A program made the position numbers and the translations under genes. Shown here in pieces: positions 3,279-20,779 of a stretch of 63,946 bases of DNA. The stretch comes from an uncultured Candidatus Saccharibacteria bacterium (GTDB lineage Bacteria > Patescibacteriota > Minisyncoccia > Phycocordibacterales > UBA918): assembly GCA_964390945.1 (NCBI GenBank), contig CAYMIV010000004.1, positions 1 to 63,946 on the forward strand, read 5' to 3'. The first letter of the stretch is position 1. Each line of letters starts with the position of its first letter. The notes beneath the pieces were generated by a model. The model ran no database searches and was not told the DNA's origin. It saw only the letters and a list, made by a program, of their open reading frames with translations.

Positions 3279-3339
3279 AAAAGAAGTGTACCATGAGTGA
3301 GTTTTGCGGGTTCCGTCGTCGTGCTATGATGCCCAAACC

Positions 3340-4782
3340 ATGGAGCATTGGAAGAATTACTTTCGGGGCAAAAAAATAACTGTCATGGGACTCGGGCTTT
3401 TGGGTCGCGGTGTTGGTGACGTTGCCTTTCTCGCCGAATGCGGGGCGGAACTCATTGTAACTGATAAAAAAACAAAGGAAGAACTCAAAGAGTCTCTCGA
3501 CAAACTGTCAGCGTATACCGATATTCACTTCGTACTCGGCGAACACCGTGAAGAAGATTTTAGAAACCGGGACCTCATCCTCGTTGCAGCGGGGGTACCA
3601 CTTGATTCTCCGTATCTTGTGGTGGCGCGTGAGACGGGTGTGCCGCTTGCGATGAGTGGTGCATTGTTTGCAAAACTTTCCGGTATTCCGATTATCGGTG
3701 TCACCGGCACGCGAGGAAAATCGACGGTGACCCATATGATTCACCATGTGCTCTGTGCCATTACAGATTCACAAAAACTGGATGACCTAAGCCTAAACCA
3801 TTCCGAAGGAATGGTCGGCCCTAGAGCGACCGCGCTCGGGTTAGCTCCAACAACTCCACGGTGTGGAGTTGTTTTAGGTGGTAATGTGCGTGGCGTCTCA
3901 AATTTGCAACTGCTCAAAGATGTAGAGGAAGATTCAATTGCGGTGATGGAACTTGATTCGTGGCAGCTTCAGGGATTTGGATGGGAGGGTATCAGCCCCC
4001 ACATCGCGGTGTTCACTTCTTTTATGGAGGACCATATGAACTATTACCACCACGACATGGCTGCGTACTTTGCTGACAAGGCAAACATTTTCGTAAACCA
4101 GAAAGAAAGCGACGTTTTCATCACTACACCGGAGGTGTTTGAACGAGCGAAAGTGTTTGCGCGAGGAAGGGGTATCACGCTCGGACAAGAAGTCATTCTT
4201 GCAGACTCGTCGCTACTTCCCGATGACTGCATACTCGCGATGCCCGGTGAACATAATCGCCTCAATGCCGCGCTCGCATACGAGGCGCTCAAAGCGACTG
4301 GGCTTTCCGATGAAGAGATTTTTGAAGGACTTGCGACATTTCCCGGAGTACCAGGGCGGCTCGAGTACTTGGGCGAGAAAGATGGTGTAAAAATATACAA
4401 CGACAACAATGCAACAACACCGACCGCAGCGCGCGCGGGAGTTTTGGCGGTCGCGAGTGGAAGGAATGTCATACTCATTATGGGCGGAGCAGGGAAGGAA
4501 CTCGATATGTCACCACTCCTTGAAATCATTCCTGAATACTGCAAAAAAATTATCTTACTTCCCGGAACCGGAACCGACTCCTTCATAAAATTGATGGGTG
4601 ACACTATTCCAGTTAACTGGAATAGTGTCACTACGCTCGAGGAGGCAATTAATAGTGCTCTCAAAGATGCTGAACCAAAAGATGTTGTTCTCTTTTCGCC
4701 TGCGTTTGCGTCATTCGGGATGTTTAAAAATGAATATGACCGCAACGATCAGTTCGTCGACGCGGTGCGTCGAGTACTATAA
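3340..4782 (+). CDS. murD: UDP-N-acetylmuramoyl-L-alanine--D-glutamate ligase
   Basis: N-terminal Rossmann motif VMGLGLLGRG, Mur ligase P-loop GVTGTRGKSTV, GGNVRG, and the C-terminal NDNNATTP motif region. ATG 3340 is preferred over the TTG at 3304. Confidence 0.92.
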   Translation: MEHWKNYFRGKKITVMGLGLLGRGVGDVAFLAECGAELIVTDKKTKEELKESLDKLSAYTDIHFVLGEHREEDFRNRDLILVAAGVPLDSPYLVVARETGVPLAMSGALFAKLSGIPIIGVTGTRGKSTVTHMIHHVLCAITDSQKLDDLSLNHSEGMVGPRATALGLAPTTPRCGVVLGGNVRGVSNLQLLKDVEEDSIAVMELDSWQLQGFGWEGISPHIAVFTSFMEDHMNYYHHDMAAYFADKANIFVNQKESDVFITTPEVFERAKVFARGRGITLGQEVILADSSLLPDDCILAMPGEHNRLNAALAYEALKATGLSDEEIFEGLATFPGVPGRLEYLGEKDGVKIYNDNNATTPTAARAGVLAVASGRNVILIMGGAGKELDMSPLLEIIPEYCKKIILLPGTGTDSFIKLMGDTIPVNWNSVTTLEEAINSALKDAEPKDVVLFSPAFASFGMFKNEYDRNDQFVDAVRRVL

Positions 4783-14000: not shown

Positions 14001-15148
14001 AACACAATCGCATTCTCATTTTTTCAACAGATGACCACCTCTATCCTGCGGGTGGGGCGGAGCAGGCAATGGGAAATATCACAGAGCGACTTCCCGATAT
14101 TCAGTTTGACCTCATCTGTGCGAAGCTGCGAAAAGGTGTTAAAAGTTTTGAGAGGATAAAAAATGTAAACATTTATAGAATGGGTTTTGGGATTCCCAAA
14201 ATCGACGGAATTATCCTTGCGCTCATCGGGCACATTGTTGCGCGGCGGCTTATGAAGAAATATCAATATGACCTTATCTGGTCAATCATGGCGAGCTATG
14301 GTGCGTTTGCAGCAGTGCGTGTAAAGAAGAAAACAGGTTTGCCATTTCTTCTTACACTCCAGGAAGGAGATTCGTTTGAATATATCTACAACAGAGTGAA
14401 ATATGTGCGTAGGCAGTTTAACGAAATTTTTGCCGTAGCGGATGGCATCCAGGCAATTTCACACTACCTTCTTAAGTGGGGTCGAGATATGGGATATAGA
14501 GGAAATTATGGAAAGGTTATTCCGAACGGAGTCGCAATTGAGGCTTTTGCACAGCCACGTTCGGCGGAGGATGTTCACCGTACCCGTGCCACATTCGGTT
14601 TCCCTGATAATGCCACAATTCTCTTTACGAGCTCGCGTCTTGAAAAGAAAAATGGTGTGAAAGACGTCATAGAGGCGCTGGCGCTTCTCCCTGACACAGT
14701 ATGTTTTGTCATTTGTGGAAGCGGTTCGCTGGAGGGTGAATTGAGAACGCTCGTTGAAAAGTACAATCTTCAGCAACGGGTCAAGTTCATGGGTTTCGTT
14801 GACCCGTCAGAATTACCGCTTCTCATGAAAGCGTCAGATATCTTCATTCGACCCTCTCTCACTGAAGGGCTCGGAAACGCATTTCTTGAAGCAATGGCAG
14901 CACGTATGGTGGTAATCGGGACTGCGGCTGGAGGCATTCCGGACTTCCTCACTGATGGGGAGACTGGGTTTGTGGTTGGCATTGAAGACCCCGACAGTAT
15001 CAGGAGCACCGTGCTCAAAGTTATTTCACTCGATGCTCATGCAAAAGAGGACCTGCTGCATCGTGCAGAGGAAATGGTTCGGGAAAGGTACGAATGGAAT
15101 TGCATCAGTCGCGAAATGGAAACACTCTTTAATGCACTTGCACCATGA
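13997..15148 (+). CDS. GT4-family glycosyltransferase
   Basis: ILIFSTDDHLYPAGGAEQ at the N-terminus. The C-terminal half has FIRPSLTEGLGNAFLEAMAARMVVIGTAAGGIPDF (EX7E region). There is an ATGA overlap with the upstream gene. Confidence 0.9.
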   Translation: MKHNRILIFSTDDHLYPAGGAEQAMGNITERLPDIQFDLICAKLRKGVKSFERIKNVNIYRMGFGIPKIDGIILALIGHIVARRLMKKYQYDLIWSIMASYGAFAAVRVKKKTGLPFLLTLQEGDSFEYIYNRVKYVRRQFNEIFAVADGIQAISHYLLKWGRDMGYRGNYGKVIPNGVAIEAFAQPRSAEDVHRTRATFGFPDNATILFTSSRLEKKNGVKDVIEALALLPDTVCFVICGSGSLEGELRTLVEKYNLQQRVKFMGFVDPSELPLLMKASDIFIRPSLTEGLGNAFLEAMAARMVVIGTAAGGIPDFLTDGETGFVVGIEDPDSIRSTVLKVISLDAHAKEDLLHRAEEMVRERYEWNCISREMETLFNALAP

Positions 15149-16347
15149 CGTCCGCAATTATTCTTGATAGTCATCTGAAGAGCGCGCTTTCTGCGGTGCG
15201 GTCACTCGGTGCGGCCGGAATCTTTGTCTCTGCCGGTGCGGAACGAGGTACCGCCATGGCGCTCCATTCAAAATATTCGAAAACGCGATTCATCTACCCC
15301 TCACCGCTTAAAGACACCGCAGGTTTCATTGGGGCGGTGAAAGAGGAGGCCATCCGAATGGCGAAACGGCCAGTCGTGTATGCTTTTTCCGATGCGACAT
15401 ACCTCACGCTCTTTGCGCACCGCGAGCGACTCGCCGACTCAATGATACTCGTGTTCCCTGAACTCTCGTCCGTTGAAATTGCATTCGATAAGGCAGCAAC
15501 CTATTCGCTTGCAAAAGTGTCTGGAATACCAACCATCACCACGTACACACCCGAATTAAAGGAGGAGGTCGAGCATCTCGGAACAACACTCACATTTCCT
15601 GCTGTGGTAAAACCGCGACGCAGCGTCGCCTGGGTAAACAATGTTGGAAAAACCGGTACGGCGTCGTTCGTTCACTCAAGGCGGCAACTCATAAAAAATT
15701 TTTTCGCTCTCAAAGAACGATTCGGCGAATCACCGCTCGTGCAGGATTTGCTCATCGGCGAGGAGTATGGCGTTGAAATGCTCGCCTACAAGGGTGTGGT
15801 ACACGCCATCGTCACGCACCACCGCATTCGCTCACTCTCACCAACCGGAGGCGCATCGGTCCTCAAGGAGACGGTTCAGTCGGGTGAACTAAAAAATTCC
15901 CTCGAAACGTATGCAAAAATTCTTGTCGAGAAACTCTCCTGGTCGGGCCCCATCATGGTGGAATTCAAGGTGGACAGCGATTCGCGCGAACCAAAACTCA
16001 TGGAGGTAAACGGTCGGTTTTGGGGCTCCCTCCCGCTCTCCGTTGCGGCGGGTGTTGACATGCCGCACCTCTATTACTATCTTGCGACGGGAAGCGGACT
16101 TCCCGAGAATGCAGTCACTGCGCGTGATGGGGTGATAACGCGGCACTTTCTTGGCGATATCCGGCACCTCCTTCGCGTACTTTTCGTTCCAAATGCGATG
16201 CGAAAAATTCTTTACCCGAAACGAAGCAAAGCGCTTGCTGATTTTTTCTCGATTCCACGGGGGACGAAAAGCGACGTGTGGTCCCGCTCTGACATGAAGC
16301 CCACACTCATGGAATTTGTTGATGTGTTTCTAAAAGCACTGCACTAA
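15145..16347 (+). CDS. ATP-grasp enzyme (COG3919-like carboxylate-amine ligase), copy 1
   Basis: FPAVVKPRRSVAW and MVEFKVD...KLMEVNGRFWGSLPLSVAAGVDMP are typical ATP-grasp motifs. It is a paralog of 18879..20036. Confidence 0.88.
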   Translation: MTSAIILDSHLKSALSAVRSLGAAGIFVSAGAERGTAMALHSKYSKTRFIYPSPLKDTAGFIGAVKEEAIRMAKRPVVYAFSDATYLTLFAHRERLADSMILVFPELSSVEIAFDKAATYSLAKVSGIPTITTYTPELKEEVEHLGTTLTFPAVVKPRRSVAWVNNVGKTGTASFVHSRRQLIKNFFALKERFGESPLVQDLLIGEEYGVEMLAYKGVVHAIVTHHRIRSLSPTGGASVLKETVQSGELKNSLETYAKILVEKLSWSGPIMVEFKVDSDSREPKLMEVNGRFWGSLPLSVAAGVDMPHLYYYLATGSGLPENAVTARDGVITRHFLGDIRHLLRVLFVPNAMRKILYPKRSKALADFFSIPRGTKSDVWSRSDMKPTLMEFVDVFLKALH

Positions 16348-16381
16348 TACCTCTCTTTATCGCACCGCTCGCTTTGCGCAC

Positions 16382-16421
16382 ACTACGTTAATCTTCCACG
16401 GTCGTATAGAATTAACGTAGT
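16382..16421 (+). promoter_or_regulatory. Stem-loop element U: perfect 11-bp stem and an 18-nt loop containing ACGGTCGTA. It abuts the start codon of 16422..17000.
   Basis: actacgttaat/cttccACGGTCGTAtaga/attaacgtagt, followed immediately by ATG. The loop-to-arm junction also reads TAGAAT, which is -10-like. Confidence 0.6.
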
Positions 16422-17000
16422 ATGAAAAATGTGAAGATTAATAGCAAAGCATTTCAGAAAGGAAGCAGGGTCCATGTTGAGGGGGTAATCCTCAAGACCC
16501 TTGCTGTTGCGGGGTTGGTAAGCATAGCCGTATTGGCTCCGAATGCATTACAACTTCTCAAATATCTTGATGGCGGAAGACGCAGAATGAAGGAACCGAG
16601 ATTCATAATGAATGAGGCACTATTGCGACTGCAATCAAAGAAACTCATTGTTGTTTCCAAAGACGGTAAGTACCGTCTTACAAAAGAGGGTGAACAACAG
16701 TTGCACCGCATTGAATTCGGAACACTCCCTCTCCCGAATGAAAAGTGGGATACAAAATGGAGAATTGTCTCTTTTGATGTGAGTGAGAAACGGAGAAAAT
16801 CACGAGACCAACTGAGGTTACTGCTTCGCCAGGTTGGTTTTGTGCGCCTTCAGGATAGTGTATGGGTCTACCCGTATGATGTGAGGGAGGTGGTAGAACT
16901 CATTAAAACAGCAAACTTTCTCGACAAGGAGGTCTTGTATATGACTGTGTACACGACCGGGAACGACAAAGTACTCAAGTCCCACTTCAAACTCTCATAG
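16422..17000 (+). CDS. PaaX-like regulator (winged-helix N-terminal part plus a Cas2/VapD-fold C-terminal domain)
   Basis: KWDTKWRIVSFDVSEKRRKSRDQLRLLLRQVGFVRLQDSVWVYPYD matches the PaaX-family pattern W.g.W..v.f.i.e..R..Rd.lr..L...GF..l...vWv.P. The N-terminal part (ALLRLQSKKLIVVSKDGKYRLTKEGEQQL) looks like a wHTH. Confidence 0.7.
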   Translation: MKNVKINSKAFQKGSRVHVEGVILKTLAVAGLVSIAVLAPNALQLLKYLDGGRRRMKEPRFIMNEALLRLQSKKLIVVSKDGKYRLTKEGEQQLHRIEFGTLPLPNEKWDTKWRIVSFDVSEKRRKSRDQLRLLLRQVGFVRLQDSVWVYPYDVREVVELIKTANFLDKEVLYMTVYTTGNDKVLKSHFKLS

Positions 17001-17006
17001 GAACAA

Positions 17007-17044
17007 TTACCTTTATTTTCAACGGTCGTACAAAATAAAGGTAA
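17007..17044 (+). promoter_or_regulatory. Stem-loop element D: perfect 13-bp stem and a 12-nt loop containing ACGGTCGTA, 6 nt after the stop of 16422..17000
   Basis: ttacctttatttt/caACGGTCGTAc/aaaataaaggtaa. It is homologous to element U, with the same loop core and arms that differ but are each perfectly paired. Confidence 0.6.
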
Positions 17045-17073
17045 TAACCAAGGTAATAACCAAGGCGATAAAC
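17038..17073 (+). repeat. Three tandem 12-bp repeats (iteron-like) immediately upstream of the PHP gene
   Basis: aaggtaataacc / aaggtaataacc / aaggcgataaac. The first unit overlaps the right arm of element D. Confidence 0.7.
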
Positions 17074-17109
17074 GTGTGGTGGTTTCTGTCTTTCGTGTAT
17101 ACTTTCGCT

Positions 17110-17910
17110 ATGGAAATACAAGGATTATTGCACTGCCATTCCAGTTACTCATATGACGCAAAACTTTCACTTCGGGAACTCCGCGAATTGTGCATACAAA
17201 ACGGAATTCACTTCGCTTGCATGACTGAACACACGGATGAGCTCACGAAGGAGCGTGCGGAAGAATTCGTGCGCGAGTGCGAAGCATTATCCGACGAGTC
17301 ATTCCGTTTCATTCCTGGATTCGAAGTGCCGTACAAAAATGCGCACATCCTGATGATCGGCGCACGAGAATTTGTCGTGAATTATGCGCCAACACTCCCG
17401 GTGCTCGATGAGTGGATAAAAAAAGCGCAATTTGTCGTGCTCGCTCATCCGGTTAGAAACAAGTTTATCGCCGAGGACGCGCTCGCAGAGCGCCTCGACG
17501 GCATTGAGGTCTGGAATCAACAATATGAGGGCAAGCGCGTTCCTCGACCGCGCTCAATCCGATTGTTTGAAACATTGAGAAAAAGAAAATCAACACTCGT
17601 TGCAACGGGCGGCATCGATTTGCACCGAGATGAACACATGGGTTCTCCGGTCGTGACACTTTCCGTCGATGCGCCGAATGAAGCAGCGATTATTGAAAAA
17701 CTCAAATTGGGAATCTTTGCGGTATCGTCCCCGCACGCGCGATTTTTCGGACTCCTCACCAATGCCGACGAACTTATGCGGAAGCATCGCTTCGAAAGCA
17801 TAATCTCCGTCGCTGTTATTGGCGCTGGCAAATTCACCAATAAAACACTGGCGTATTTGGGATTGACGTTACCCGCGTCACTCAAACGCGCGGTGCGCCG
17901 CTCGCTCTAA
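17110..17910 (+). CDS. PHP-domain metal-dependent phosphoesterase, copy 1
   Basis: LLHCHSSYSYD, ACMTEHTDEL and LDGIEVWNQQYEG (PHP-associated C-terminal part). ATG 17110 is preferred over GTG 17074. It is a paralog of 20033..20779. Confidence 0.85.
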   Translation: MEIQGLLHCHSSYSYDAKLSLRELRELCIQNGIHFACMTEHTDELTKERAEEFVRECEALSDESFRFIPGFEVPYKNAHILMIGAREFVVNYAPTLPVLDEWIKKAQFVVLAHPVRNKFIAEDALAERLDGIEVWNQQYEGKRVPRPRSIRLFETLRKRKSTLVATGGIDLHRDEHMGSPVVTLSVDAPNEAAIIEKLKLGIFAVSSPHARFFGLLTNADELMRKHRFESIISVAVIGAGKFTNKTLAYLGLTLPASLKRAVRRSL

Positions 17911-17944: not shown

Positions 17945-18898
17945 ATGCTAGAAACGAATTCAAAAAAGGGCACGGTGGTTATTTCTGTGGACCTTGAACT
18001 GTCGTGGGGAAGTGGGGGAAAGCATAGTTACGTGCCGCTCCACGAAAAAGAACGGGAGATTTTAAATCGGTTTCTTGCGCTGTGCAATCAATATAGTATT
18101 TCTTGCACGTGGGCAACGGTCGGAAATCTTCTTCTCAAAAATCGCGAGGAGGCGAAACGCCGAGGCATCGTTCTCTACGGGAGAGCGCCCCATATATATG
18201 AACAAGTTATCGGTACCGGGAATTCAGCAGAGCACCTATGGTTTGGCGAAGACATTGTGCAGAGCGTTATTGATTCACCCGTTCATCAAGAATTGGCAAG
18301 CCACTCCTTCTTTCATACACGCGCACCTGAGGCAAATCGATTAGATTATAAACATGAACTTATTCAGGTAAGACAGCTAGCGAAAGACAAGTTCGGAATC
18401 GATATCGTGTCCTATGTTCACCCCCGAAATTTGATAGGACACCTCGATGTGCTTAATGAGGTTGGTTTTAAAAATTACCGAGGCAACGATCGAATCAGTT
18501 CACTGCCCAAGATTCTTGGCGCGGGCGGAATTACGCGCCTTATAGAGGTTGGTCTCGGTCTCGCAATTCCTCCCGCACAACCACATGTCGTTGATTCCGG
18601 ACTCGTGAATGTACCCGCGAGTTACTTTTTGGCAACGACTCTCTTTAAGGAAGTACATCCTCCGGTGTGGCGTACCGTATCTCAATGCAGAAAAAGTATC
18701 GAAGAAACAAAAGGGGGAGGAATTTTTCACCTCTGGTTTCACCCGCACAACATTGCACGAAATCAACCCCACTGGTTTTCTGTTCTTGAGCAACTCTTTT
18801 CGTATATATCGCAAAAACAAAAAGAGGGAAGCGTTGCGGTGATGACTATGGGTGAAGTAACACGAAGGGTAAGCGAATATGATGGTACTCATTCTTGA
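17945..18898 (+). CDS. Polysaccharide deacetylase (CE4-like), copy 1
   Basis: VVISVDLELSWGS, SHSFFH and HLWFHPHN. It is a paralog of 21585..22586 (VVTLDFELFWG, GNHTFSHF, HLWWHPHN). Confidence 0.82.
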   Translation: MLETNSKKGTVVISVDLELSWGSGGKHSYVPLHEKEREILNRFLALCNQYSISCTWATVGNLLLKNREEAKRRGIVLYGRAPHIYEQVIGTGNSAEHLWFGEDIVQSVIDSPVHQELASHSFFHTRAPEANRLDYKHELIQVRQLAKDKFGIDIVSYVHPRNLIGHLDVLNEVGFKNYRGNDRISSLPKILGAGGITRLIEVGLGLAIPPAQPHVVDSGLVNVPASYFLATTLFKEVHPPVWRTVSQCRKSIEETKGGGIFHLWFHPHNIARNQPHWFSVLEQLFSYISQKQKEGSVAVMTMGEVTRRVSEYDGTHS

Positions 18899-20036
18899 CG
18901 CTGAAACAAGAAGCGCACTCGCTGCTCTCCGCTCGCTTTCGCGGCGAGGAATTGATGTTGTTGCGGGTTCTTCGAATAAAAACGCTCTCTCCTTTTCTTC
19001 TCGGATGTGCACAAAGCGATTTCTCCACCCCCATCCCGGCAAAGACAGGAAAGCATTCATCGGTGCGATTGAAAAATTTCTCAAAGAGAACTCGGACACG
19101 CTCTGTATGAGTTTTACCGACATTACCACCGATGCGCTACGCGATTGCGCAGATACGGAAACTTTCGGACATAATTTTGTTGTTCCGCAATCGCAACAAT
19201 TTTTTCAAGCAACAAATAAGCGCATCCTTGCGGAAATCGCCAGCTCGGTTGATATTCCCACACCCGAAGAAATCAATCCTGAATGTTTTACTGACCCCGC
19301 GAGAGTGGCAGACATTACCTATCCGGTCATTATAAAACCAGCACGCTCCGTTTCCTGGAAGGAAGGGAAAGCGCACAAGGATACTGCACGAGTGATACAT
19401 ACCGCAAAGGATCTGCTTGAACAACGCGACTACTTTATGAAGCATGCTTCAGACGTTCCTCTCACGCAAAAAATGCTCTCTGGTGATGAATTTGGAGTTT
19501 CGGTATTGGCTGATCATGGGGTTCTCAAGGCGTGTTTTGCGCACAGGCGACTTCGTTCCATTACCCCGCATGGGGGAGTTAGCACGCTTCGAGAAAGCAT
19601 TTTTCTCACCGAAGAGATGAAAGACATTGCAGAAAAACTTACCAAAGTCCTCGAGTGGAACGGGGTCATGATGATAGAGCTGAAACGAAACAATGAGACA
19701 GGCAGGCTTACGCTCATTGAAATCAATGCGCGTTTTTGGGGGTCGCTTTTTTTAGCCATTCAGTCTGGGGTGGATTTTCCATACCTTCTCTACCTTCAGT
19801 GGTCGGGCAGGGGTAGTGAAATTCAATCACCTTCGTATACCGTCGGTACACGCGCACGGCATTTAATCACCGACTTCAGCCACTTCTACGCATTACGATG
19901 GGGTGCCTTCTCACCCAAAAAAATTAAGGAGTTCTTTACCTTCTTTGGAAAAAATCTATACTTTGATGTGTGGTCACTCAATGACCCCCTGCCGGGATTT
20001 GTCGAGCTGTTTCAATTTATGAAAAACAAACTATGA
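18879..20036 (+). CDS. ATP-grasp enzyme, copy 2
   Basis: YPVIIKPARSVSW and MMIELKRN...LIEINARFWGSLFLAIQSGVDFP. There is a 20-nt overlap with the upstream gene. Confidence 0.88.
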   Translation: MMVLILDAETRSALAALRSLSRRGIDVVAGSSNKNALSFSSRMCTKRFLHPHPGKDRKAFIGAIEKFLKENSDTLCMSFTDITTDALRDCADTETFGHNFVVPQSQQFFQATNKRILAEIASSVDIPTPEEINPECFTDPARVADITYPVIIKPARSVSWKEGKAHKDTARVIHTAKDLLEQRDYFMKHASDVPLTQKMLSGDEFGVSVLADHGVLKACFAHRRLRSITPHGGVSTLRESIFLTEEMKDIAEKLTKVLEWNGVMMIELKRNNETGRLTLIEINARFWGSLFLAIQSGVDFPYLLYLQWSGRGSEIQSPSYTVGTRARHLITDFSHFYALRWGAFSPKKIKEFFTFFGKNLYFDVWSLNDPLPGFVELFQFMKNKL

Positions 20037-20779
20037 TAGTACGCGGTGTGTATCATGCGCACTCTCGATTTTCGGGTGACGGGCATTTTTTATTGTCAGA
20101 ACTGAAAGAAGAGTTTAAAAAGAGGGGCCTTCGATTCGTCATAATGACAGAGCATGCAGAAGACCTGACTCCCGAACGTTACCGAGCGTTTTACAGCGAG
20201 TGCGCAGCACAGAGCGATGAAACATTTCTATTCATTCCGGGTCTCGAGGTTCCTTTTGAAGGAAAAATACATGTCGGTTGTTTTCCAGCTGCGCCCGCAT
20301 ATGACGCGGTGCCGCTCTTTGCTCCAGGTATCGCCGCCATGCGAGAACATGGCGCAATCACTATTTTCCACCACCCGTCAAAACAAAGTTATTTTATGAC
20401 GCCGGATTTCAGGCGTCTTCTCGACGGGGTTGAGGTATGGAATTCACGATATGAAGGAGTCTGTGCCCCGAGCAGGCGAACGATTGAATTTGCCAAGGAA
20501 CACTTCAAAGACAACCTGTTCCTCGGGGGCCTTGATCTTCACCGAGAACAGCAGTTTGGCGGTCCCTGTCTCGAGGTTCGTGTCGAATCGCCCACGGTTG
20601 GAGAAATAACCGACGCCATTCGGTGCGGTAATTTTGCGCTTGCGGGACGATTTTATCGTTTTGATAAAAAGACATTCCTACGTCCGAGCAATAGAGTGTG
20701 GTATCTTTTGGTTCGATACTGCTATGAAGTGTTGCGGTATCTTCGAAACGCAGTGACACGATTACTTCGCGGGCGATAA
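20033..20779 (+). CDS. PHP-domain metal-dependent phosphoesterase, copy 2
   Basis: VYHAHSRFSGDG, IMTEHAEDL and LDGVEVWNSRYEG. There is a 4-nt overlap with ATP-grasp copy 2. Confidence 0.85.
   Translation: MIVRGVYHAHSRFSGDGHFLLSELKEEFKKRGLRFVIMTEHAEDLTPERYRAFYSECAAQSDETFLFIPGLEVPFEGKIHVGCFPAAPAYDAVPLFAPGIAAMREHGAITIFHHPSKQSYFMTPDFRRLLDGVEVWNSRYEGVCAPSRRTIEFAKEHFKDNLFLGGLDLHREQQFGGPCLEVRVESPTVGEITDAIRCGNFALAGRFYRFDKKTFLRPSNRVWYLLVRYCYEVLRYLRNAVTRLLRGR

Follow-up and report, generated by a model that had tools for sequence, protein, structure and literature searches.

Paired palindromes flanking a minimal PaaX-like gene of Patescibacteria: predicted operators of an autoregulator

What reads the two long palindromes that enclose a small PaaX-like gene, and to what effect? 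The question is raised by a stretch of 63,946 nt, here called the window (contig CAYMIV010000004.1 of an uncultured Candidatus Saccharibacteria bacterium), in which one palindrome, box U, abuts the start of the gene (gene X, Table 1) and the other, box D, lies just past its stop codon. An earlier note on this DNA described U and D as homologous stem-loops that might be operator or recognition sites of the encoded protein, ends of a small inserted cassette, or elements of RNA processing or translation control. The results presented here favour the first of these options, and U and D are predicted from sequence, with moderate confidence, to be the cognate operators of a minimal PaaX-type autoregulator encoded between them. 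This option is the best supported of those offered, by an association of box and gene across 82 loci, by arms that are shared between U and D and specific to a protein subfamily, and by a geometry like that of the PaaX box.

Symmetry of the boxes and their association with one gene family

The positions and sequences of U and D were confirmed, with D best taken at the limits given in Table 1. Box U is composed of the arm ACTACGTTAAT (16382-16392), an 18-nt centre cttccACGGTCGTAtaga and the arm ATTAACGTAGT (16411-16421), and its palindrome extends to 16379-16424 (14 bp with 1 mismatch), the ATG being included in the extended arm. The perfect stems of 11 and 13 bp reported previously were also found, and that of D reaches 14 bp once the A:T pair 17006/17045 is counted. 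The outer half-sites are ACTACG-N28-CGTAGT in U and ATTACC-N28-GGTAAT in D. The gene ends with the stop codon TAG at 16998-17000, 5 nt before the start of D, while U directly adjoins the ATG with no GGAGG-type Shine-Dalgarno (SD) sequence upstream, as had been stated. The 9-nt "loop core" is indeed present in both boxes; however, the part ACGGTCGT is itself palindromic (ACG/GT/CGT), and since the core is dyad-symmetric each box is a 40-bp interrupted palindrome rather than a stem with an unstructured loop. The complete 9-mer ACGGTCGTA occurs exactly twice in the 63.9 kb (at 16398 and 17022, same strand) and its one-mismatch variants are at the chance level for the window (15 compared with 12.4 expected), which rules out a frequent word and a chance match. 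It is not a universal element, being replaced with GCTATAGC in orthologs.

A repeat search returned U and D as a 39-nt direct repeat of 77% identity with a spacing of 624 nt. The stems had been described as different in sequence, and they do differ at 3 of 11 positions of the outer arms; yet they are related, the other 8 of 11 being identical, and both fit the ortholog consensus ATTACYTTWAT. All 3 differences are compensated. The compensated changes from which selection on pairing rather than on arm sequence had been argued are real and strong, but the outer arms and the centre are constrained in sequence as well. When 178 centre motifs in the window were scored for dyad symmetry, U reached 14/18 and D 16/18 and every other motif 12 or less. 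Folding z-scores of the boxes ranged from -2.2 to -6.1 and the G+C content of the box stems from 28 to 39%. A covariance model, the training set of which included U and D themselves, found nothing else in the window at E<0.05, and no further box was found in the 64 kb.

Relatives of gene X were collected in 80 genome loci and several metagenome loci (cited by labels such as L001), and the counts that follow refer to 82 non-redundant loci. Up to 200 nt from either gene end, long palindromes had a density of 2.4-2.7 per kb compared with ~0.15 per kb in the remaining sequence of the loci, an enrichment of ~16 times the background density. The centre motif C[GT][GA][TC][CA]G was present in 72 of the 83 near palindromes as opposed to 7 of the 82 far ones, and the symmetry threshold of a box was reached by 5 of 1132 background centre motifs. 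A U box was found in 55 loci and a D box in 54. The search for copies in relatives that the earlier note had proposed found boxes family-wide; as to whether copies always flank PaaX-like genes, both boxes were present at 41 of the 82 loci, and solo boxes occur in other intergenic regions. The centres are CGGTCG, CGACCG, CGATCG or CTATAG, and close orthologs of gene X alternate between CGGTCG and CTATAG. A covariance model built from the box alignment (R1) recovered the untrained U and D of L110 with 42.8 and 39.9 bits, the family member at that locus being non-orthologous to gene X, and untrained solo boxes were recovered too.

The symmetry is bounded sharply at ~20 bp either side of the axis. 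It peaks (0.90-0.99) in the stretch that is least conserved between loci, positions 11-18, and falls to 0.68-0.80 at positions 5-9, figures that are inflated because the sites in the profile were chosen for symmetry. With the same inflation, 89.4% of the cells in an ungapped alignment of 109 boxes, likewise pre-selected, were paired, compared with 49.5% after shuffling and 33-43% with a slid partner, and the covariation score was 0.918 compared with 0.21.

The arms are characteristic of the locus and of the protein. Identity between U and D arms was 0.79 within a locus and 0.42 between loci, and paralogs of one genome carry different arms (L018 and L056; L076 and L081). The recognition helix Q(K/R)EY..SSASKL is found with arms of the class ATACGTTATAAT, the helix RRPSY(I/V)N.VVERL with ATGT(T/A)(A/G)AAATAG, and the helix NPKYLIGNAFEKL with ATTATCTTA(A/G)C. 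Box distance correlated with helix distance when the Cas2-like domain was allowed for (partial Mantel r=0.19, permutation p ~5e-4), a correlation that is still confounded by shared ancestry.

Further palindromes were observed on the contigs of relatives. At L050 (2785-4283) four box copies with arms GGGGAATATAAT and centre GCGCGGTCG are present, one upstream of the gene and three in a downstream stretch of ~1 kb that is poor in open reading frames (ORFs). Palindrome families with other arms lie on the same contigs as boxes at L091 (13395, 14108 and 18049), L092 (2948) and L096 (6023). Those of L091 are CTATAG-centred with terminator-like A/T-run flanks, and in L092 and L096, which are contigs of the same metagenome, GGATCTTAATTA arms enclose CGATAG and CGACAG centres. 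These families may be the boxes of other paralogs.

The encoded protein and its predicted mode of action

The central part of the encoded protein matched Pfam PaaX_M (PF20803) over residues 107-176 with E=1.9e-19 and 70 bits against a cutoff of 24. The NCBIfam cas2 model (TIGR01573) scored 30.5 bits, above its cutoff of 24.5, and Pfam CRISPR_Cas2 scored 22.2 bits, under its cutoff of 23.8. The N-terminal region had no Pfam match; residues 65-167 aligned with positions 39-140 of TIGR02277 at 41.8 bits against a cutoff of 264.6. The AlphaFold (AF2) model contains a helix (59-72), a beta hairpin forming the wing (76-86) and a further helix (88-98) followed by a ferredoxin-like domain, with pLDDT >89 from residue 61 onward (10-residue block means) and residues 1-56 modelled poorly. 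An N-terminal hydrophobic stretch was considered as a membrane anchor and rejected, its pattern being more likely that of helices 1-2 of the winged helix, in the poorly modelled part. The best fold matches in the PDB by Foldseek were E. coli PaaX (8a39) and Rv0674 (3kfw), followed by many Cas2 proteins. The phenylacetyl-CoA effector domain PaaX_C was not found with Pfam, and the last residue of the protein, 192, directly follows the Cas2-like domain.

A profile search at E<=1e-30 showed the family to be large and uniform, with 662 clusters (50% identity), nearly all of 170-210 aa; the best 150 representatives are all ~170-260 aa, and members with a named organism come from Patescibacteria (Paceibacteria/Parcubacteria) genomes. 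Residues W109, D110, R114, D119, R128, Q144, S146, W148 and P151 are each 99-100% conserved and cluster in the Cas2-like domain, in which the Cas2 motifs FD[IV] and QxSVW are present; all 149 representatives have D119, the Cas2-type Asp with which beta-1 ends. The putative winged-helix region varies across the family. No second family member was found in the window, nor any CRISPR-like array (no 20-mer in 3 or more copies), and the Pfam annotation of the genes called in 12 fetched homolog loci included neither cas1 nor any other cas family. PADLOC gave weak Cas2 matches only, and neither a PHROG match nor relatives in viral contigs were found. No paa genes for phenylacetate catabolism lie nearby, the neighbours being glycosyltransferases, ATP-grasp, PHP and deacetylase genes. 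Many members are labelled "CRISPR-associated endonuclease Cas2" in public annotation (for example P0002, P0019, P0059, P0085 and P0108), which, at loci without cas genes or arrays, is probably a systematic mis-annotation in Patescibacteria.

The operator reading makes the following proposal for box and protein. A dimer would read the 40-bp dyad, with the variable winged helices contacting the variable outer half-sites 13-18 bp from the axis and the conserved Cas2-like core lying over the conserved centre R-C-K-R/Y-M-G-Y (ACGG/TCGT here). Box U would span both the core promoter and a start codon that has no SD sequence and is probably leaderless, and because of this coverage binding there would repress gene X itself. 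Family-wide the U axis is most commonly 17 nt ahead of the ATG, with the start codon frequently falling within the arm (...GTATGGG). Box D, which tracks the stop codon (median ~35 nt), would be a second operator closing the module as roadblock, loop partner or insulator, and in this ortholog group it would also lie just upstream of the leaderless-type promoter of the PHP gene. A conserved TATACT-N6-8-ATG of that gene follows the end of D after 27-30 nt in L002, L005 and L105 and after 40 nt in L001; solo boxes before the exonuclease gene exo and before dnaG share this arrangement, such that together with the four ortholog-group loci the box end precedes TATACT/TATAAT-N6-13-ATG by 27-40 nt. The distance in the window is 52 nt, 24 nt longer, because the right outer arm of D is tandemly repeated twice (AAGGTAATAACC, 17038-17061). 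The start of the PHP gene is likely 17110 and not the GTG at 17074. Boxes of this class also occur on their own, in different intergenic regions of related metagenomic contigs, which suggests that the protein may regulate a few further sites as a small regulon.

Table 1. Features of the box-gene-box module in the window
Feature	Position	Strand	Remarks
Box U, 40-bp interrupted palindrome	16382-16421	none	11-bp perfect outer stem
Conserved centre of U, CGGTCG	16399-16404	none	dyad axis 16401/16402, inside ACGGTCGT (16398-16405)
-10-like stretch TATAGAAT in right half of U	16405-16412	+	9 nt before ATG; putative promoter role
Gene X, 192-aa minimal PaaX-like protein	16422-17000	+	putative N-terminal winged-helix region and Cas2-like (PaaX_M) domain, without PaaX_C
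Box D, 40-bp palindrome	17006-17045	none	outer stem 14 bp perfect, plus ACG/CGT inner pairs
Conserved centre of D, CGGTCG	17023-17028	none	dyad axis 17025/17026
Tandem 12-mers, AAGGTAATAACC twice then AAGGCGATAAAC	17038-17073	+	repeat the right outer half-site of D; add 24 nt between D and the PHP -10
TATACT-N6-ATG, conserved leaderless-type PHP start	17098-17112	+	pattern shared by orthologs

A TATACT or TATAAT placed 6-13 nt before an ATG with no SD sequence was observed ahead of the PHP, exonuclease and dnaG genes and many others (window; L001, L002, L005, L094, L098, L103, L105 and L106), and leaderless-type starts seem common in these genomes. Three other repeats were observed in the window. 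A palindrome with a 19-bp perfect stem at 131-178 (CTGATACAACAAAACCGCC...GGCGGTTTTGTTGTATCAG) has A-run and T-run flanks in the manner of a canonical bidirectional intrinsic terminator and scores only 24 bits with R1. Within a 492-aa ORF (3304-4782), positions 4598-4631 form a 34-bp perfect palindrome, GTGACACTATTCCAGTT/AACTGGAATAGTGTCAC. A 45-nt direct repeat of 91% identity (2139-2183 and 2327-2371) runs into the 5' part of the minus-strand tRNA-Ile(GAT) (2089-2162) and may have been left by duplication of the tRNA or by integration there.

Solo boxes, mobility of the unit and rival explanations

Metagenomes were scanned with the pattern ATTACYTT-N9-centre-N9-AARGTAAT, in which the inner N9 is unconstrained. 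Eighteen loci were returned, in only 3 of which a family gene stood beside the box; ~10 of the others were perfect or near-perfect palindromes in other intergenic regions, situated upstream of dnaG, between the divergent ung and exonuclease genes, after truB, after nrdB and near gyrB. Three of these positions, at dnaG, ung-exonuclease and truB, were each found in contigs of two metagenomes, and the boxes downstream of truB occupy a site where another genome carries the whole gene. In the flanks of the fetched loci ~5 boxes were found away from the gene in ~430 kb (~1 per 86 kb).

The position of the unit was compared among relatives. The order ATP-grasp, regulator gene, PHP is kept in the six ortholog loci read, at 63-72% amino-acid identity, and a recent insertion cassette is ruled out by this conserved synteny. 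The inserted-cassette option is not supported in that form; over long times, though, the unit does sit elsewhere. In the window the module splits one ATP-grasp/PHP pair (15145-16347 and 17110-17910), while a paralogous pair in the same glycan-type cluster (18879-20036 and 20033-20779) is uninterrupted, its genes overlapping by 4 nt. In the homologous glycan cluster of the complete Kaiserbacteria genome CP064968.1 ATP-grasp and PHP are not separated by a regulator gene, in a further homologous cluster a different family member and its boxes are placed between the epimerase and a glycosyltransferase, and distant relatives adjoin gyrA, gyrB, topA/parB, truB, SMC, aminoacyl-tRNA synthetase and other genes. 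From these differing positions it is concluded that the box-gene-box unit is self-contained and was relocated over evolutionary time.

Two side observations concern these neighbourhoods. An inverted repeat of another kind, with a 17-bp stem (CCCCATTTACCGTATAT-N14-ATATACGGTAAATGGGG), lies in the ATP-grasp/PHP spacer of CP064968.1 (L111, 11205-11260). Modules (L016, L024, L037, L042, L049, L055, L075, L080, L088 and L091) and solo boxes (L093, L094, L096 and L098) are often beside genes of DNA topology or maintenance (gyrA, gyrB, topA, parB, SMC, ligA, recJ, dnaG, ung and nrdAB); the sample of neighbours is biased toward long ORFs, such that the abundance of DNA-topology and aminoacyl-tRNA synthetase genes supports no claim of a functional theme.

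Several results weigh against operators read by the encoded protein. A scan for consensus sigma-70 promoters gave no match at U or D, and on this account the leaderless promoter beneath the box is best described as putative; -10-like words in U are weakly directional (12 loci versus 9). The distance from D to the next gene is broad and is kept only in the ortholog group, not family-wide, and the spacing of U and D has no helical phasing of the kind that would signal looping (Rayleigh p 0.1-0.5). Operators are not usually sited past the 3' ends of genes or between convergent genes, as several of the solo boxes are. The invariance of D119 leaves room for what may be a catalytic role. A further difficulty is symmetry where sequence is free to vary. 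The unconstrained inner N9 was complementary at 9/9 positions in 10 of 19 boxes and at 8/9 in 2. Between orthologous boxes the differences were at 4 paired positions for dnaG and at 5 for ung-exonuclease, all compensated with 0 others, while the 52 nt adjoining the dnaG box differ at only 4 positions. Among U and D of the same locus, in sites chosen for symmetry and thus inflating the count, 57 compensated differences were found versus 84 in a single arm, where ~5 compensated would be expected if changes were independent. A plain operator model leaves this near-perfect symmetry at freely varying positions unexplained. The bound form could be a cruciform or hairpin, or the arms could be corrected by template switching, a known mutational process at quasipalindromes.

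The cruciform is the basis of an alternative in which the boxes are extruded and the winged helix-turn-helix (wHTH)-Cas2 protein reads the stem base and conserved loop, nicking or cutting at the dyad as a nuclease of a REP/RAYT-like system or self-mobilising cassette; solo boxes would then be dispersed copies or relics of recombination between U and D. We consider it unlikely. A conserved "loop", covarying mid-stem and conserved stem base are typical of hairpin-recognising enzymes; with the invariant Cas2 Asp pair expected on the dyad axis, action on a cruciform is conceivable, and the conservation of D119, Q144 and S146 together with a cas2 score above cutoff is in keeping with an enzyme. The changing position of the unit in glycan clusters and its absence from one of them, the uninterrupted paralogous pair in the window, the solo boxes at the truB site and the four copies at L050 are also what such a system would leave. 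These points are opposed by the low copy number, with none but U and D in 64 kb and the low density away from the gene, by solo boxes at orthologous positions in contigs of two metagenomes, by ortholog synteny down to 63% amino-acid identity and by the lack of viral-contig or PHROG relatives. Because the paralogs are ~40% identical with different arms, there would have been no recent spread. Cas2 moreover does not depend on its nuclease activity in the role known for it, and PaaX uses the fold for dimerisation.

Hairpins acting in RNA without the protein, as bidirectional terminators, insulators or stabilisers of mRNA ends that isolate a leaderless gene, are judged quite improbable. Their placement would suit such a function, since D lies 5 nt past the stop codon, U lies 31 nt past the stop of the upstream ATP-grasp gene and many solo boxes are just past 3' ends or between convergent genes; the compensated changes that preserve pairing and the terminator-like flanks of the L091 palindromes point the same way. 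However, the stems are not GC-rich and lack a T-run, a scan for intrinsic terminators (GC-rich stem and T-run) over 16200-17250 returned 0 sites, and canonical terminators are used elsewhere in these genomes. G:T mismatches (54) were not in excess over A:C mismatches (47), G:U pairs made up only 2.6% of cells, the covariance model R1 scores both strands equally, and the central dinucleotide is either GT or AC, at times with one in U and the other in D of a single locus. Rfam gave no match at the gathering threshold or at E<=0.1, and no tRNA or tmRNA was found at the boxes. Since there is neither strand bias nor G:U excess, the constraint acts on the duplex or equally on both strands and a strand-specific RNA element is unlikely, which disfavours the RNA processing or translation control suggested in the earlier note. 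RNA hairpins would also leave unexplained the conserved centre, the sharp 40-bp limit, the arms shared by U and D yet specific to a subfamily, and the 16-fold enrichment beside one gene family. That enrichment, at both ends of the gene, likewise argues against a general promoter element, and the boxes are very unlikely to be sites of another factor, or symmetric bidirectional promoter elements for RNA polymerase and sigma, with the PaaX-like gene merely one target. Outer arms (TTAC.., ATAC..) at the place of a -35, TATAAT-like words in the inner arms on both strands and solo boxes between the divergent ung and exo genes would fit that explanation; arms that differ between paralogs of the same genome and co-vary with the recognition helix of the protein do not, and the sigma-70 scan was negative here as well. 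Operators of the encoded protein remain the best-supported explanation.

Significance and comparison with known systems

No description of this regulator-operator family or of its boxes was found in the literature searched. Gene regulation in Patescibacteria, or the candidate phyla radiation (CPR), is barely known, and here the family is large and the likely DNA target of each member can be read from the flanks of its own gene, which would provide many naturally orthogonal regulator-operator pairs and a route to the regulons of uncultured bacteria. Recognition of the family also corrects a recurrent annotation error, the Cas2 names inflating CRISPR counts in CPR genomes. The compensated symmetry at unconstrained positions offers a clean natural case for asking whether cruciforms or template switching shape bacterial operators. 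If the cruciform reading were true, the system would be a supercoiling-sensing switch (with gyrA, gyrB, topA, SMC, ligA and dnaG as neighbours) or a REP/RAYT-like system on a Cas2 fold, and a free-living Cas2 relative linked to cognate palindromic repeats would bear on the origin of Cas2 and the CRISPR repeat.

Among known palindromic elements, intrinsic terminators share a dyad hairpin straight after the stop codon; they differ in the GC-rich stem and T-run that are missing here, and the boxes in addition have conserved centres and outer arms and are tied to one gene family. On inspection of the sequence the boxes also seem unlike integron attC sites, U and D being alike rather than cassette-specific, the RYYYAAC/GTTRRRY cores being absent and no integrase being among the neighbours. 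CIRCE, the element of HrcA, is a long inverted repeat at the regulator's own operon and a few promoters, and has been reported to act on DNA and as an RNA hairpin. The boxes resemble it as long inverted repeats at their own regulator and a few other sites; CIRCE however is conserved across phyla, has no second copy downstream and belongs to another protein family, whereas the arms here are hypervariable. The REP/RAYT systems (REPINs) share the layout of a gene between two palindromes with solo copies elsewhere and hairpin-type covariation. They differ in their HUH/Y1 (IS200/IS605-like) transposase, the protein here being wHTH and Cas2-like, and probably in copy number, with tens to hundreds of copies per genome compared with ~1 per 50-90 kb in the sequence scanned here, where the copies are near-perfect and AT-rich and the solo ones lie at orthologous positions.

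Cas2 shares the ferredoxin-like fold, the beta-1 Asp and QxSV[FW], and both are associated with palindromic repeats of 30-40 bp. The present protein differs in its putative winged-helix fusion and in having two repeats around the gene in place of an array with spacers, with no cas1 seen in the 12 homolog loci.

The closest resemblance is to PaaX, a repressor of E. coli and Pseudomonas, which in E. coli has ~316 aa. Both proteins have a central Cas2-like domain, and the N-terminal region of the present one is a putative winged helix like that of PaaX. Both are paired with operators of two 6-bp inverted half-sites ~27-28 bp apart, 39-40 bp in all and 6+28+6 for the boxes predicted here in silico. 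The E. coli PaaX box, TGATTC-N27-GAATCA, spans 39 bp, and PaaX represses its own Px promoter by occlusion (PMC9493321); as there, the box here covers the start of its own gene. The differences are a protein of 192 aa as opposed to the 305 residues of the 8a39 chain, without PaaX_C and without nearby paa genes, a palindromic spacer whose centre is conserved, boxes both before and after the gene, Cas2-like motifs (FD[IV], QxSVW) closer to those of true Cas2, and a host among the Patescibacteria. The system is predicted to operate in the manner of PaaX and its box; the protein falls short of full PaaX membership, having neither effector domain nor paa genes, and it is not a CRISPR Cas2.

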